Virus record (IMG/VR): IMGVR_UViG_2636416161_000006
Strand: one strand, 5' to 3'
Length of the DNA: 5,132 nt
DNA from: a virus
Lineage: Duplodnaviria; Heunggongvirae; Uroviricota; Caudoviricetes
Shown: positions 1 to 5,132 of the stretch, one piece after another
How the letters are laid out: each line of letters opens with the position of its first letter
How positions within the stretch are numbered: the first letter of the stretch is position 1
Translations under genes and position numbers: made by a program
Notes under the pieces: generated by a model
What the model saw: the letters and a program-made list of their open reading frames with translations, nothing else
Databases searched by the model: none
What the model was told of the DNA's origin: nothing

Positions 1-29
1 GTGTTGGTTCAGTTGGTTCAGTTGGTTCA
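1..29 (+). repeat. Three perfect tandem direct copies of the 9-bp motif GTTGGTTCA (3-11, 12-20, 21-29); extended 11-mer GTGTTGGTTCA at 1-11
   Basis: Read directly from sequence. The array starts at the first bases of the window, so further copies upstream cannot be excluded. Confidence 0.95.
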
Positions 30-72
30 ATTTGTAAAGAGTATTGTTTTATAAGGATTTTATTCTTTTTAT

Positions 73-115
73 TGAACCAACACTGAACCAACAACACGGC
101 ATTTTGAACCAACAC
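73..115 (-). repeat. Three copies of TGAACCAAC(A) at 73-81, 84-92 and 105-113, the exact reverse complement of the 1-29 motif (inverted orientation)
   Basis: Read directly from sequence. 73-83 and 105-115 are the full 11-mer TGAACCAACAC; 84-94 is TGAACCAACAA. Confidence 0.95.
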
Positions 116-209
116 AACGTGACTGAATTGATGAGCACAACATCTGGCTGGCATTAGAGAGTGTTTTACGAAATCTGAACACCACATCACTGGTTTCAGT
201 GGGAGATTG

Positions 210-668
210 ATGATGAAGATAATCGCAAAGGCTTTTCATCATGTATTTGGCAAAGTATCCGATTTGCCATCTGTAATACCGATGAACAACAGAAGGGAGA
301 TGCTGCTTGATGTGGTTGTGTTCCCATACATAGACCTTTCTGAACCAATGAAAGCAACTCTTTTCAGAAAGTATCTTGGCGACTTTAAACGCCGTTTTAC
401 AGGCGTTAACGGGATGGTTGATATCTGCTCCATCAGAGATATTGTTGAACTTGCAGGGATTAATTTGTGGGGAGAAGCGGCAGCAGCATACAAATGGCTT
501 GAACGCCTGCACTGTGTTTCATTCAGTGACATGAGTGCTGATATCGCTTTAATGGTTCCTCACAAAATCAATATGGTCTTTGCTGGTGGCAATTACACTT
601 ATCCATGGAACCAGGAACAAAGAGAGAACAGGAAAGCTCACGCCATGAAGAGTAATGCGACTCCATAA
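210..668 (+). CDS. Hypothetical protein, about 152 aa; possible helix-turn-helix or winged-helix DNA-binding segment (SIRDIVELAGINLWGEAAAAYKWLERL)
   Basis: ORF-track frame 207..668. GGGAGA at 201-206 is an SD-like element, so ATG at 210 (or 213) is a more plausible start than TTG at 207. Stop TAA 666-668, followed by an intrinsic terminator. The overlapping minus-strand ORFs look spurious. No family recognised. Confidence 0.7.
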   Translation: MMKIIAKAFHHVFGKVSDLPSVIPMNNRREMLLDVVVFPYIDLSEPMKATLFRKYLGDFKRRFTGVNGMVDICSIRDIVELAGINLWGEAAAAYKWLERLHCVSFSDMSADIALMVPHKINMVFAGGNYTYPWNQEQRENRKAHAMKSNATP

Positions 669-720
669 ATATAGTTTTTAGAGTCCATAAAAAAACTGTC
701 AAAACCTGACATACAGAACG

Positions 721-753
721 ATGCCACCAGCTACTGAACGGTGGCATTTTTTT
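721..753 (+). terminator. Rho-independent terminator: stem ATGCCACC / GGTGGCAT (8 bp), 11-nt loop, then a run of seven T
   Basis: Perfect 8-bp inverted repeat 721-728 / 740-747 followed by TTTTTTT (747-753), about 55 nt after the stop of the 210-668 CDS. The T-run is on the + strand only. Confidence 0.75.
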
Positions 754-785
754 GTGCTATTTGTTTCATATTTTGCAATCACAAT

Positions 786-815
786 GATGAATGTTGCGTT
801 TTATGAAACTATAAT
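786..815 (+). promoter_or_regulatory. Candidate sigma70 promoter for the 849-4598 operon: perfect -10 TATAAT (810-815) with a weak -35 (GATGAA/ATGAAT/TGAATG at 786-793)
   Basis: Consensus -10 hexamer 34 nt upstream of the first start codon of the unit and directly downstream of a terminator. The -35 matches TTGACA at only about 3 of 6 positions. Transcription start not determined. Confidence 0.45.
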
Positions 816-817
816 GA

Positions 818-833
818 CTGTTGTTTTATACAG
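818..833 (+). promoter_or_regulatory. LexA-box-like (SOS box) palindrome CTGTTGTTTTATACAG (CTGT-N8-ACAG)
   Basis: Matches the invariant CTGT and ACAG half-sites of the gammaproteobacterial LexA consensus TACTGTATATATATACAGTA, with an AT-rich centre. Lies between the -10 hexamer and the SD, a typical repressor position. Only one such site occurs in the window. Confidence 0.55.
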
Positions 834-848
834 TTCTAAGGGGGCGTT

Positions 849-1022
849 ATGGCTATTTCAGTAAAGCCAGTATTGATAAGTGAGAAGCAAATGGAAGCGA
901 TAAAGAAAATTCAGGAGGAGCAGCGTAAAAAATCAGAGGTAGGAGTTGCGCCAACGATCCACGAAATTGCTCGGGGATTAATGGATAAGGCGCTGGCTTA
1001 CACTTTAACTGGACGTGGGTAA
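849..1022 (+). CDS. Small protein, 57 aa (MAISVKPVLISEKQMEAIKKIQEEQRKKSEVGVAPTIHEIARGLMDKALAYTLTGRG); possible ribbon-helix-helix DNA-binding protein
   Basis: Not in the supplied ORF track, probably below its length cut-off. Strong SD AAGGGGG (838-844) 4 nt before ATG 849. Stop TAA 1020-1022 lies 4 nt before ATG 1027 of the next ORF. Pattern of short N-terminal strand (KPVLIS), helix, turn and helix resembles CopG/Arc-type RHH proteins. Fold assignment is inference. Confidence 0.65.
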   Translation: MAISVKPVLISEKQMEAIKKIQEEQRKKSEVGVAPTIHEIARGLMDKALAYTLTGRG

Positions 1023-1026
1023 ATCA

Positions 1027-2493
1027 ATGGCTACGTGGCAACAGGGTATTAATTCTGGTGGTTTTCTGGCTGGCATCGGTACGCAAAATGAGAATGCGCC
1101 AAAGGCAAGCGACATTAACGCAACGCTTGGTCTGATCCGCGAAAACAATGAACTGGCTCGCTCAGGTGCAAATAACGTTGCTCTGACAGGTCTTCGTGGT
1201 CTGGCTGGAGTTGCTGATATTTATAAGCAGCAGCAACAGCAGGAGCGTAAAGCGGCATTCCAGAAAGGTTATGCAGATGCTTATGCGTCCGGTGACAGGG
1301 AGCAGATGCGTAATCTTATTACAGCATTCCCAGAAGAGTTTGAGGAAGTCCGTAAAGGGATGAGTTATGTCGATGATGCTCAAAGGGATGATTATGGCAA
1401 TCTGGCGCTCAAAGCACAGGTAGCCTCATCGCTTGGTCCGGGCGCATTTGGCAGGTTCATGATGGATAATGAGCAGGAGATGCGTCGTTTAGGTATCCCT
1501 CCAGAAACTATTGCTGAAATGCAGGTTAATGACCCGCAGGGCTTCCAGCATTTCGCAGGTAATCTGGCGCTGTTTTCTCTCGGTCATGAGAAGTATTTCG
1601 ATATCAAAGATCAAATGGAAGGTCTGGATATTGAGCGTGGCAAGTTGGCAGAGACAATCCGCAGCAATCAGGCTGGCGAGGCACTTCAGGCGAGAGGGCA
1701 GGATATTAGCCGAGCAAATGCGTTAACGTCAGCATATGCACCAACAGCAGCAATGCAGAATTACAATCAGTACGCTCAAATGTTAAAGGCGGATCCTGAG
1801 GGGGCTGCGGCATTTGCGGCAGCGGCGGGAATTAATACAAACGCCAAAAAATTAATGAGTGTTAGAGAAAACGATGATGGCACTGTCACAAAATACTACA
1901 CAGACGGAAGTGAAGAGCAGGGAAAACTAAACCAGCCAATATCTGGAGATGGGTTTCGTCCAATAGCTTTGCCAACAGCCCAAAAGATCATGGAAAAGTC
2001 GCCAGAAGGGGCTAAAAAAGCTGCTGGATTTGCATACAGAGTTAGGGATGCTCTTGATTCAATAGATACACTGAAAGACCAGCTTAGCCCACAGCGAGTG
2101 GCGATCATTAATAATGCTTTGGGTAATGGGACGCTGGCTAACTTAACGCTCAGCCCAACAGAGCAGCAATACGTTGTTAATGCTAATGACGCAATAATGG
2201 CAATACTCCGTCAGGAAACAGGGGCAGCTATCGTACCTGCTGAAATGTCAAAATATTATCAAATGTATTTCCCTCAGCCTGGCGACTCCACAAAAACCAT
2301 TGATACCAAGCGCCGGAAGATGGAAAACCAGTTCAATTCGCTGAAAGCTGCTTCTGGTCGAGCTTATGATGCTTTGCGGGTTATTTCAGCAGTTGACAGA
2401 GGAACTTCTTCTTCGTCGCAGACATTGCCGCAATCTGAGCAGGTATCACAGCCAGCAGCCAGCAGTAACTTTTCTTCACTATGGGGTGATTAA
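1027..2493 (+). CDS. Hypothetical protein, 488 aa from ATG 1027 (492 aa if GTG 1015 is used); Gln/Ala-rich, low-complexity, no hydrophobic segment, function unknown
   Basis: Uninterrupted ORF of about 1.47 kb. ATG 1027 follows the upstream stop by 4 nt (translational coupling), with weak SD-like GTGGGT at 1015-1020. Its stop TAA 2491-2493 overlaps the next start in TAATG. Contains a QQQQQ run and Ala-rich tracts. No Walker, HxH, nuclease or other catalytic motif recognised. Confidence 0.9.
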   Translation: MATWQQGINSGGFLAGIGTQNENAPKASDINATLGLIRENNELARSGANNVALTGLRGLAGVADIYKQQQQQERKAAFQKGYADAYASGDREQMRNLITAFPEEFEEVRKGMSYVDDAQRDDYGNLALKAQVASSLGPGAFGRFMMDNEQEMRRLGIPPETIAEMQVNDPQGFQHFAGNLALFSLGHEKYFDIKDQMEGLDIERGKLAETIRSNQAGEALQARGQDISRANALTSAYAPTAAMQNYNQYAQMLKADPEGAAAFAAAAGINTNAKKLMSVRENDDGTVTKYYTDGSEEQGKLNQPISGDGFRPIALPTAQKIMEKSPEGAKKAAGFAYRVRDALDSIDTLKDQLSPQRVAIINNALGNGTLANLTLSPTEQQYVVNANDAIMAILRQETGAAIVPAEMSKYYQMYFPQPGDSTKTIDTKRRKMENQFNSLKAASGRAYDALRVISAVDRGTSSSSQTLPQSEQVSQPAASSNFSSLWGD

Positions 2494-4598
2494 TGGCTAA
2501 AGCATGGAAAGATGTTATCGCCTCTCCACAGTATCAGGCGTTAGCACCAGAACAAAAAGCGCAGGCTCAGGAGCAATACTTCAATGAAGTCGTGGCCCCG
2601 CAAGCCGGAGAAAGTGTAGAGCAGGCTAAGCAGGATTTTTATGCTGCCTATCCACTACCATCAACGAATGAAATAGACCGATCCCAATCAGCAACTCAAA
2701 ATATTCAACATACATCATCTGATAATTCTCTTGCGTCAGGGTATGCAAAGTTAGCTACTCAGCAAAGAGAGGGGCTTGAGCGTTCAGCAGAACAGGGAGC
2801 CAGTCTTGGGGCTGCGATGCGCGATGCTATAACAGGCGAAAGCCGAATGACTCCAGAGATGGAGAGACTGCAAAATGTCGACCTTGCCCCAGAGTTAACC
2901 TCACTCAGCATGGATGCTCTAAAAGCTCGATGGTCTCAACTTTTCGGCTCTGACGCATCTCAGGAAAAGATTCTTCAGAGCATGGGAGCGAAATTAAGGC
3001 AGGATGAGAAGGGTAACACTATCGTTTCCCTGCCATCCGGTGATTATGCTCTGAACAAGCCGGGTTTATCGCCGCAAGACGTGGCATCGTTTCTGGCTAA
3101 TGCGCTGGCGTTTACACCAGCGGGCAGGGCTGGAACGGTGCTTGGTGCCATAGGAAAATCAGCAGCTACAGATTTAGCACTACAGGGAGCCACCAGCCTT
3201 GCTGGTGGAGAAGATATTGATCCGTTACAAACGGTAATTTCTGCTGGCATTGGTGGTATTGGTAAGGGGCTGGAAAATACAGCGAGTGCGGTTTCGAGGG
3301 CTGTTCGTGGTGATATGTCGCCTGAAGCAAAGGCTGCTGTCAACTTTGCATCGGAAAGAAATCTGCCGTTAATGACCAGTGACATGCTGAAAGATAAAAC
3401 CTTTATGCAGAGTCAGGCTCAGACATTAGGCGAAAGAGTTCCTTTTTTTGGAACCGGTAAGAATCGGCTGAATCAACAACAAGCACGAGAAAATTTAGTC
3501 AGAACATTTAGCGATGGTCTGGGTGGCATTTCTGATAAACAGCTTTATGAATCTGCGACTAAAGGGCAACAAAAATTCATTGAGGCAGCAGGAAAGCGAT
3601 ATAACCGCATAATTGACGCTATGGGGGATACCCCTGTCGATCTCTCAAACACGGTAAAAGCTATCGACAATCAGATTGCCGTGTTAAGCCGCCCGGGCAA
3701 ATCTCAGGATAGAGCCGCGGTAAAAGTCTTGCAGCAATTTAAAGACGATATCACCAGCGGACCAAATGACCTGCGTCTGGCGAGGGAAAACAGAACCGAT
3801 CTTCGAAAGCGATTTATGGCGTCATCTGACACTGTTGATAAAGATACGCTCCAGAAAGCCAGCGATATTATCTACAAGGCATATACGGCGGATATGAAAA
3901 AAGCCGTAGCCAAAAATCTTGGAGCAGACGAAGCCATTAATATGGCAAGGGTTGATCGCTCATGGTCTAAATTCAATGACATGATGGGAAGAACGCGCGT
4001 TCAAAAGGCAATAGCCAGCGGCAAGGCCACGCCTGAGGATGTAACAAAACTCGTTTTTAGCCAAAGCCCATCAGAACGTTCTCAGCTTTACAGGCTTCTG
4101 GATGACAATGGTAGGCAAAACGCACGAGCAGCCATAGTTCAGAATGCTGTAGATAAGGCGACTGATCCGTCTGGAAATATCAGTGTTGAGAAGTTTATTA
4201 ATGCGTTACACCGGAACAGGAAGCAATCAGCAACTTTCTTTAAAGGCGTACATGGAAAGGAACTGGACGGCGTTATTAAATACCTCAACGATACAAGACA
4301 CGCGGCAAAAGCGAACGTTCAAAACTTAAATGGTCAGCAGCTTTATGGATTGTTAGTTGGTGGTGGCATCATAAACGCAGCAGTATTAGCGGGGATGCTA
4401 AAAACGGCTGCGTTTGTTGTTCCTGCTGCTGGTGCCGTAGGCGGAGCAGCGAAGGCATACGAAAGCCCTGTTATACGAAATGCCTTGTTACGTCTGGCAA
4501 ATACGCCAAAAGGTAGCACAGCATATGACAGAGCGATCAGTACGGTCACACAATCACTGACCACAGCAGCACAAGCATCGCAAAAGGAAGCTCAATAA
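2493..4598 (+). CDS. Hypothetical protein, 701 aa; mostly hydrophilic and low-complexity with a C-proximal Gly/Ala-rich hydrophobic hairpin (about aa 617-653); possible membrane-inserting protein
   Basis: Uninterrupted ORF of about 2.1 kb. SD GGGGTGA (2483-2489), ATG 2493 overlapping the upstream stop. Hydrophobic stretch LYGLLVGGGIINAAVLAGMLKTAAFVVPAAGAVGGAA is encoded at 4341-4451. Stop TAA 4596-4598. No family recognised. Confidence 0.9.
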   Translation: MAKAWKDVIASPQYQALAPEQKAQAQEQYFNEVVAPQAGESVEQAKQDFYAAYPLPSTNEIDRSQSATQNIQHTSSDNSLASGYAKLATQQREGLERSAEQGASLGAAMRDAITGESRMTPEMERLQNVDLAPELTSLSMDALKARWSQLFGSDASQEKILQSMGAKLRQDEKGNTIVSLPSGDYALNKPGLSPQDVASFLANALAFTPAGRAGTVLGAIGKSAATDLALQGATSLAGGEDIDPLQTVISAGIGGIGKGLENTASAVSRAVRGDMSPEAKAAVNFASERNLPLMTSDMLKDKTFMQSQAQTLGERVPFFGTGKNRLNQQQARENLVRTFSDGLGGISDKQLYESATKGQQKFIEAAGKRYNRIIDAMGDTPVDLSNTVKAIDNQIAVLSRPGKSQDRAAVKVLQQFKDDITSGPNDLRLARENRTDLRKRFMASSDTVDKDTLQKASDIIYKAYTADMKKAVAKNLGADEAINMARVDRSWSKFNDMMGRTRVQKAIASGKATPEDVTKLVFSQSPSERSQLYRLLDDNGRQNARAAIVQNAVDKATDPSGNISVEKFINALHRNRKQSATFFKGVHGKELDGVIKYLNDTRHAAKANVQNLNGQQLYGLLVGGGIINAAVLAGMLKTAAFVVPAAGAVGGAAKAYESPVIRNALLRLANTPKGSTAYDRAISTVTQSLTTAAQASQKEAQ
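3190..3208. other. Back-to-back Chi octamers forming a perfect palindrome CCACCAGC-CTT-GCTGGTGG
   Basis: GCTGGTGG (E. coli Chi) on + at 3201-3208 and its reverse complement at 3190-3197, i.e. Chi on the minus strand. Additional Chi octamers at 582-589 (+) and 724-731 (-, inside the terminator stem). Confidence 0.6.
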
Positions 4599-4659
4599 CA
4601 GATGACCATGGATGGTTGGTTATAATAGTAATTAGTATTTTTTCAAATAGTTATGAACA

Positions 4660-5058
4660 TTAACACTTGCCTTTAACATTGCCGACAAATGAGCCTGTAA
4701 ATGAGCCTATATCAGATCGACTAATTGTTCGTGTATGGATCACTTTTCCGTCATTTGAGATTGCCCATGTGACAAGCGTCAGTTGACCATCTCGATAGCT
4801 TCTTCCCATCATGGCATTCGGAGATAGCGGGTAATAATCAATACCTCCACCTATACCATCTTTTGCCAAGATAAGATCCGCCTTCTCTTTACTTATTACC
4901 AAATGAAATGTATCTGGTATAGATGATAACTTATAGTTATACCCATCTGAACTTGAGGCTTCTTGTCCTTTCAGATCACCAATAATCCAGCATTCAGCGT
5001 TCGCTCCAAAAGAAGCAAATAATAAACCGGAGACAACCAATCGCTTCAATTGATTCAC
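4660..5058 (-). CDS. Small secreted (periplasmic) protein, 132 aa precursor with a predicted Sec signal peptide (MNQLKRLVVSGLLFASFGANA, cleavage after ANA); mature domain of about 111 aa begins ECW and ends in Cys
   Basis: ORF-track frame 4660..5121. An internal GTG (5056-5058) is preceded at 6-nt spacing by the strong SD AAAGGGAGG and gives a textbook signal peptide (N-terminal K/R, hydrophobic core, AxA site). The upstream ATG at 5121 has no SD within the window and would add 21 non-signal residues. Not a lipobox (E at -1). About 42 percent GC by hand count of several lines. Confidence 0.75.
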   Translation of the reverse strand: MNQLKRLVVSGLLFASFGANAECWIIGDLKGQEASSSDGYNYKLSSIPDTFHLVISKEKADLILAKDGIGGGIDYYPLSPNAMMGRSYRDGQLTLVTWAISNDGKVIHTRTISRSDIGSFTGSFVGNVKGKC

Positions 5059-5132
5059 ACCAACCCTCCCTTTAGCGTTGTTTAGAATGGCAATTGGATT
5101 TGCCCCTATATTTCCAGACATCTGTTATCACT

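Follow-up and report, generated by a model that had tools for sequence, protein, structure and literature searches.

The stretch of DNA analyzed here (the window) comprises 5,132 nucleotides (nt) of the IMG/VR virus record IMGVR_UViG_2636416161_000006 (Caudoviricetes), and its features are collected in Table 1. At its right-hand end, a minus-strand gene encodes a small exported protein that converges on two genes for P22-type phage ejection proteins. By sequence comparison, this protein is a divergent member (31-34% identity) of the 434 Hex/Sf6 gp38 family. The gene is real and not a chance open reading frame (ORF), because its product matches the phage protein family phrog_2651, has about 100 homologous clusters, and is modeled by AlphaFold2 with a mean predicted local distance difference test (pLDDT) score of 89.3. 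In Escherichia coli strain AHM8C212RI (locus L001), the RefSeq coding sequence WP_001426179.1 has limits identical to those of the window gene and likewise a length of 132 amino acids (aa). The gene limits, the export of the product, and its assignment to the family are well supported, and the corrected limits and family assignment supersede both the label "hypothetical protein" and a chimeric ORF that is described below.

Table 1. Features of the window, with positions counted from its first nucleotide
Feature	Position	Strand	Basis and remarks
Coding sequence of the Hex-like protein	4660..5058	-	GTG start 5058-5056, TAA stop 4662-4660, 132-aa precursor; ORF translation, phrog_2651, RefSeq WP_001426179.1, AlphaFold2
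Shine-Dalgarno sequence AAAGGGAGG	5065..5073	-	6 nt ahead of GTG; direct sequence reading
Native 5' leader	5059..5094	-	Common, through GTG-AAT, to the unrelated membrane-protein cassette of other islands; alignment
Signal peptide, 21 codons, MNQLKRLVVSGLLFASFGANA	4996..5058	-	Predicted signal peptidase I cut after ANA; -3/-1 rule, model helix
Mature domain, 111 aa	4663..4995	-	Predicted closed antiparallel beta-barrel, 9 strands
Cys23 codon (mature position 2, C-W motif)	4990..4992	-	Invariant column, 49-sequence alignment
Cys132 codon (last residue)	4663..4665	-	Invariant column, 49-sequence alignment; probable disulfide partner of Cys23
Spacer between convergent stop codons	4599..4659		61 nt, AT-rich, 28% G+C
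P22 gp20-type ejection protein, 488 aa	1027..2493	+	Pfam PF16928 Inj_translocase, 1.3e-83; phrog_917, 4.5e-143
P22 gp16-type ejection (DNA transfer) protein, 701 aa, convergent	2493..4598	+	phrog_770, 2e-161; 29% identity to Emek gp16, E = 8e-47
Terminal 38 nt of IS2	5095..5132	-	100% match to IS2 copies; insD 3' end adjoins, insCD read toward the gene; holds ATG 5121

The start codon was examined in the window and in related E. coli islands. On the minus strand, positions 5073-5056 read AAAGGGAGGGTTGGTGTG, with a GGAGG core, a 6-nt spacer, and the GTG codon, and the initial annotation was right to place the start at a GTG with an ideally spaced Shine-Dalgarno sequence. Its second observation, that the ATG at 5121-5119 adds 21 residues without a Shine-Dalgarno sequence, was also correct, and this ATG lies inside the end of an IS2 element. 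The 153-aa ORF that begins there is a spurious chimera of IS2 and native DNA, since positions 5095-5132 are the IS2 end and E. coli genomes without the insertion match the window only up to position 5094. In the uninterrupted islands, an in-frame ATG-ATG without a good Shine-Dalgarno sequence lies 13-14 codons 5' of the GTG. For one and the same leader, RefSeq uses inconsistent starts, namely the GTG with 132 aa (L001) versus the upstream ATG with 145 aa (WP_016231257.1, L018), and an upstream-ATG model of 129 aa is given for an alternative cassette (L017). The ATG-based RefSeq models add the 13 residues MIAILNNAKGRVG, which are probably not translated. The GTG start is favored because the alignment places the N-termini of all homologues a few residues from it at most, because the resulting signal peptide of 21 aa is typical of the family (median, 19 aa in 97 full-length members), and because a cassette boundary coincides with the start codon. 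The initial statement that the annotated start is probably wrong held for the chimeric ORF; RefSeq already uses the GTG in some genomes and a native upstream ATG in others.

Approximately 330 other complete E. coli genomes carry the leader (window 5053-5094) with its Shine-Dalgarno sequence and GTG-AAT, followed there by the coding sequence of an unrelated 116-aa protein that has several hydrophobic segments (L017 3656-4006, minus strand). Judging from the alignment, the position behaves as an exchangeable cassette site with its boundary at the start codon. The gp16-like gene next to the L017-type cassette is a truncated pseudogene. The alternative 116-aa membrane protein had no match among the PHROG families, and it was rejected as a SieA homologue for want of similarity to P22 SieA.

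The Hex-like gene is AT-richer than the operon on which it converges, as had been noted at the outset, with a G+C content of 40.1% compared with 47.5% in each upstream gene and a third-position G+C content of 0.32 compared with 0.40-0.41. The 61-bp gap between the two stop codons was likewise confirmed at 4599-4659, and a terminator scan of this gap revealed none that was convincing. In the uninterrupted island of L001, the 520-nt noncoding region 5' of the gene (L001 17174-17552, outside the window) contains five scattered copies of a GACCAGTACGCGCG-like motif, which may be binding sites of a regulator.

From the GTG, the precursor begins with MNQLKRLVVSGLLFASFGANA followed by ECW; a hydrophobic core follows a basic n-region, and A-N-A occupies positions -3 to -1. 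Among the 97 full-length family members, position -1 holds A in 89, S in 6, and G in 1, and position -3 holds S, A, V, or T in 96. The canonical Sec signal peptide and the export proposed in the initial annotation are therefore backed by the -3/-1 rule in 96 of these members. The first mature residue in the family is mostly D, E, N, or Q. The cleavable signal peptide is the only hydrophobic segment of the window protein, and the remainder is expected to be soluble in the periplasm. As initially described, the mature domain of about 111 aa contains exactly two cysteines, at mature positions 2 and 111, and both belong to the invariant columns of a 49-sequence alignment (C23, G31, W98, G126, and C132). 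Exactly two cysteines were found in the mature part of 86 of the 97 members, and the C-terminus of the family is Cys, or Cys plus one or two polar residues. The periplasm is where such disulfides are formed. A lipoprotein of the exclusion type represented by T5 Llp and Cor was considered and rejected: the context is G-A-N-A-E-C, and the D, E, N, or Q that precedes the cysteine in most members is incompatible with the lipobox L-[AS]-[GA]-C.

The family was then delimited by profile searches. The window protein matched phrog_2651, annotated as "unknown function," with E = 2e-22 over profile positions 1-116 of 117. A tblastn search recovered homologues with 29-34% identity in ten phages (434, lambda imm434, Sf6 (gene 38), HK446, HK633, Sf101, Huey, Chlobot, Emek (orf129), and ST-35); for 434 Hex, Sf6 gene 38, HK446, HK633, Sf101, and Emek orf129, the E values were 1e-12 to 1e-14, with 85-93% coverage. 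Wider searches required a profile of the phage homologues, as a single-sequence word-indexed search gave only near-identical E. coli copies. With the family profile, 101 clusters were obtained from Escherichia, Salmonella, Citrobacter, Klebsiella, Enterobacter, Yersinia, and Aeromonas, and the window protein scored E = 2.9e-55. It shows the Sec signal peptide ending in AXA, the x-C-W motif, the C-terminal FVG.V.G.C motif, and the two conserved cysteines of the family, whereas the Pfam and NCBIfam libraries gave no match for it. Within E. coli, the window gene was found in 125 copies, all at least 99% identical. An exhaustive HMMER scan of 1.8 billion representatives yielded 40 proteins at E <= 0.001, about 35 of which were small and family-sized, indicating that the family is small. 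The scan also brought up a few long repeat proteins, of which three (P0102, P0119, and P0120) were inspected and set aside as low-complexity or repeat matches to an "A-x-C/T-W-x-[IV]-G-D-L-x-G" stretch, and two others (P0127, 760 aa with 8 matched stretches, and P0129, 2342 aa with 4) were discarded on their profile in the result table alone.

A structure prediction, which the initial annotation had suggested, was obtained with AlphaFold2 from the family alignment and yielded a barrel. The model, whose predicted template modeling (pTM) score was 0.76 at the mean pLDDT given above, shows a helix over the signal peptide (residues 4-18) followed by nine strands, several of them only 5-6 residues long. 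Because the first and last strands of the barrel are probably neighbors, Cys23 and Cys132 would be placed for a disulfide, and the model thus supports the terminal cysteine pair as the probable disulfide that had been suspected from the sequence. Taken together, a periplasmic, disulfide-closed barrel is likely. In Foldseek, no match was found at E <= 0.001, and the structural matches were generic and pointed to no specific relative; a sequence search of solved structures with the family profile gave nothing at E <= 1.

Two readings of such a barrel were weighed at this point. According to the first, the protein would belong with small outer-membrane beta-barrels such as Lom, Ail, OmpX, and PagP and would modify the cell surface, serum resistance and receptor masking being examples; the record of phage Huey labels its homologue "PagP." However, eight-stranded outer-membrane barrels (OmpX/Ail/Lom, PagP, and OmpW) were rejected, as no Pfam outer-membrane family matched, the mature domain has just 111 aa with several strands of 5-6 residues, the C-terminal Cys or Cys plus 1-2 polar residues stands in place of the typical aromatic residue, and an invariant terminal cysteine pair is atypical of this class; we regard this reading as highly improbable. 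According to the second, the protein would be a periplasmic ligand-binding, lipocalin-like cargo with a host benefit unrelated to phages. Lipocalin_4 matches were indeed seen in 4 of the 49 aligned members, although these were weak (best E = 0.003), and around the Aeromonas members, whose small integrase/resolvase islands form a third genomic context of the family, there are no genes for ejection proteins or repressors and none that is clearly of prophage type. The generic, non-significant structural matches argue against a lipocalin-like cargo, as do the restriction of the Enterobacteriaceae members to two classical prophage exclusion positions and the exclusion phenotype of Hex, both described below, and this role is unlikely.

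The first of these two positions is that of the Hex clade (134-138 aa), whose genes always overlap by 4 nt the stop codon of a 210-aa helix-turn-helix/S24 cI repressor gene in lambdoid phages and prophages. This is the place where lambda has rexAB, and in phage 434, transcription from PRM through hex was shown by reverse transcription-PCR (PMC3564112). The second position is that of the Emek/window clade (129-132 aa), whose genes are convergent with gene 16 in the P22-like phages and prophages Emek, ST-35, L013-15, and L023. In P22, the gene convergent with gene 16 is sieA, and the window gene occupies the same position; it does not lie 3' of cI, and linkage to cI marks the Hex clade only and not the whole family. 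Both family positions are expressed in lysogens. The superinfection-exclusion or moron function, which the initial annotation had kept as a fallback, is thus supported by the Hex family and by the sieA position. Homology to P22 SieA itself was rejected, as BLASTP gave E = 1.6, phrog_7745 matches SieA and not the window protein, and SieA is a polytopic inner-membrane protein.

In L013-15, the hex-like gene is the last of an mnt/Rap1a-like/hex-like operon. The gene between mnt and the hex-like gene (L013-L015 5650-5985) encodes a Rap1a-type protein (PF18602, 9.7e-15) with the fold of type VI amidase immunity proteins, and the operon thus encodes two exported proteins in succession.

The initial annotation had favored an immunity protein against a periplasm-acting bacteriocin from an SOS-induced toxin operon upstream. 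This idea was rejected because the convergent genes encode P22-type ejection proteins on an island of the phage-inducible chromosomal island (PICI) type; no bacteriocin, lysis gene, or SOS-box context was seen. Taken more broadly, the protein would counteract a periplasm-acting toxin or enzyme as an immunity protein or inhibitor; examples of such targets are a type VI secretion amidase, a bacteriocin, and a lysozyme-type hydrolase. Its small size, export, probable disulfide, and beta-structure would suit this role, the neighboring Rap1a-type gene suggests that the mnt operon of L013-15 collects periplasmic protective proteins, and some gp16 homologues, for example that of the island EcCIMP1, carry a lytic transglycosylase domain. 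On the other hand, the upstream genes encode virion ejection proteins and not a toxin, no toxin partner is conserved beside the members in any of the three genomic contexts, the top structural matches include no known immunity or lysozyme-inhibitor fold, and no Pfam or NCBIfam family was matched. Furthermore, the sole genetic phenotype of the family is phage exclusion. An immunity or inhibitor function is accordingly unlikely.

The name Hex stands for "heterologous exclusion": a Salmonella lambda imm434 lysogen excludes P22, whereas a hex mutant does not (Susskind and Botstein 1980, cited in PMC3564112), and 434 Hex is the only member of the family known to exclude P22. Shkilnyj et al. (2013) proposed that Hex shields the 434 repressor from RecA-stimulated cleavage (PMC3564112). 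In that case, the family would act in the cytoplasm, binding an S24-type phage repressor, preventing its RecA-stimulated autocleavage, and stabilizing lysogeny. Deletion of hex increased spontaneous induction 30-fold, in recA+ cells only, and a truncated protein (sHex, 61 residues) partly complemented the deletion (7-fold) and at micromolar concentrations inhibited RecA-stimulated cleavage of the 434 and P22 repressors in vitro (PMC3564112). The invariable joining of the Hex clade to the end of the 210-aa S24 cI gene also speaks for repressor protection. In the same study, a 158-aa ORF was taken as Hex; the full-length protein was not recovered after Factor Xa cleavage of its fusion to maltose-binding protein (MBP-Hex), and its overproduction was lethal, which the authors left unexplained. 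They therefore used the 6-kDa sHex, from E43 to N103 (PMC3564112).

When the 434 locus was translated (L003 2450-2935), E43 was found directly after the predicted cleavage site, which lies between ...LLTTSANS and ECW. The sHex fragment thus represents the first 61 of 116 mature residues, which is about half of the predicted barrel, and the second cysteine is absent from it. The words signal, periplasm, membrane, and secretion do not occur in the text of PMC3564112, which never mentions a signal peptide, and our literature search found no paper linking Hex to the periplasm. The signal peptide predicted across the family, together with the invariant cysteine pair, fits poorly with a cytoplasmic target. 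The lethality of full-length Hex overproduction resembles, and would fit, an overload of the export pathway, and the induction phenotype may be real but indirect. In addition, no S24 repressor is annotated in the window island, and the Emek/window clade is linked to gene 16 and not to cI. Protection of a cytoplasmic repressor is, for these reasons, a very unlikely role for the window protein.

We instead propose a role in the periplasm. The 132-aa precursor would be exported by Sec and cut by signal peptidase I after ANA, and the released 111-aa protein would fold in the periplasm as a small, closed, soluble beta-barrel, in which the invariant Cys2-Cys111 disulfide (mature numbering) probably staples the first strand to the last. 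A resident element would in this way make a superinfection-exclusion factor that acts as a periplasmic block on the delivery of incoming phage DNA. The most plausible targets would be P22-like podophages, whose ejection proteins form a conduit across the periplasm, and we hypothesize that this conduit is what the protein acts on. Superinfection exclusion is the best-supported reading of the window protein, and we consider it somewhat more probable than its opposite. Its support consists of a single genetic phenotype, seen in a relative of 31% identity, together with the two genomic positions. Functional precedents are the exclusion of P22 by 434 Hex, the SieA block from the same position, and the superinfection immunity conferred by the related island EcCIMP1, both described below.

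Several points weigh against superinfection exclusion. No PADLOC model matches the window protein. No promoter was recognized 5' of the gene, either in the window or in the uninterrupted island, and the promoter and terminator scans around the gene and in that island yielded nothing usable. The IS2 insertion, 36 nt 5' of the GTG, severs the gene from its native upstream region and puts it 3' of the IS2 transposase genes (the orientation of insC and insD was taken from phage Ge15), and in this strain the insertion may either silence the gene or drive it. Biochemical work on the family is limited to a single study, which gives Hex a function in the cytoplasm, the blocking of RecA-stimulated cleavage of the 434 and P22 repressors (PMC3564112). 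Finally, EcCIMP1, the only studied island of this type, is a PICI of E. coli MP1 that is mobilized by the P22-like phage Kapi1 and adds superinfection immunity against this helper (PMC11773190). EcCIMP1 has no hex-like gene, and its immunity phenotype therefore cannot be credited to the Hex-like family.

The remainder of the window was assigned to its host element. Positions 1-5094 match 147 complete E. coli genomes with up to 99.7% identity, and in strain AHM8C212RI, the matching stretch lies within an approximately 17-kb island between yicC and dinD. Genes for an integrase, a small helix-turn-helix regulator, an AntA/AntB antirepressor, a member of the Ash family, and a TOPRIM/DUF927 primase are followed in this island by the window genes and then by a PerC-family regulator; its annotation contains no S24 repressor, no toxin, and no lysis gene. 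On the basis of these genes, we classify the host element as an EcCIMP1-like PICI. This satellite island lacks capsid, tail, and lysis genes and still carries genes for P22-type ejection proteins. The 701-aa gp16-like protein is a divergent gp16 type, as judged from its family matches. It has no Pfam match, even to the P22 gp16 model that matches the 613-aa homologues of L013-15, whereas its match to phrog_770 is full-length.

At the left end of the window (1-119), three direct copies of GTTGGTTCA in a 9-nt phase (3-35) and three inverted copies of TGAACCAAC (72-115) flank an AT-rich core. This iteron region adjoins the 3' side of the TOPRIM/DUF927 primase gene and is 91% identical to its EcCIMP1 counterpart, and it has the appearance of the island's replication origin. 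A 153-aa ORF at 207-668 had no match in any library. A 57-aa ORF (849-1022) directly 5' of the gp20-like gene shows approximately 90% DNA identity with EcCIMP1 and had no family match, and a terminator-like hairpin (730-745) with a T-run to position 755 lies between these two ORFs.

In a wider hypothesis, the Hex family would form a new class of soluble periplasmic exclusion proteins, disulfide-stapled mini-barrels that intercept the gp7/gp20/gp16 conduit and complement SieA. The published anti-RecA mechanism would then be an artefact of a signal-less half-barrel fragment, and the PICI copy, beside its own ejection genes, would control the entry of helper-type phages. We advance this hypothesis tentatively and consider it less probable than its contrary. 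A phage family with one classical phenotype, that of 434 Hex, is predicted to be uniformly exported and occupies both classical prophage exclusion positions. Uniform export provides a simple, testable alternative to the sole published mechanism of Hex. Very few factors are known to block DNA entry by short-tailed phages, and the window protein is a further candidate; it is likewise a candidate defense cargo on a kind of satellite island that is widespread in E. coli.

P1 Sim and T4 Spackle are examples of small exported proteins whose signal peptide is cleaved off and which act from the periplasmic side to stop the entry of phage DNA. The likeness of the window protein to these two is one of function only, as we know of no homology or shared fold between them. 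P22 SieA is a prophage-expressed, envelope-acting protein that prevents the injection of DNA by P22-like phages via gp16 and gp20, with escape mutations in the C-terminal parts of both proteins (PMC10883804), and what the window gene shares with it is the position convergent with gene 16.

Compared with 434 Hex and Shigella phage Sf6 gp38, the window protein shows 31% identity (tblastn E of approximately 1e-13) and shares the size, the signal peptide, the AXA/x-C-W and FVG.V.G.C motifs, and the predicted barrel, and all are carried on a resident temperate element. However, 434 hex lies 3' of cI in a lambdoid phage and is translationally coupled to it, whereas the window gene lies 3' of ejection gene 16 on a satellite island and has its own leader, and the published cytoplasmic mechanism of 434 Hex conflicts with the conserved export signal. 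The closest clade consists of Salmonella phage Emek orf129 and its relatives in P22-like prophages, with 34% identity, 129-132 aa, and the same arrangement convergent with gene 16. The genes of this clade belong to complete P22-like phages and often close the mnt operon, whereas the window copy sits on a PICI with only gp20 and gp16 genes. EcCIMP1 shares with the window island the integrase, an AlpA-type regulator, the antirepressor, Ash, the TOPRIM/DUF927 primase, a small conserved ORF, P22-type ejection genes, and PerC, as well as the iteron origin (window 3-171, 91%) and the small-ORF region (window 599-997, 90%). It differs in its site, a tRNA-Thr gene between proA and yagU, and in its ejection genes: EcCIMP1 carries genes of the gp14, gp7, gp20, and gp16 types (L024 5481-10649), and its gp16-type protein includes a transglycosylase domain, whereas the window island carries gp20- and gp16-like genes only.

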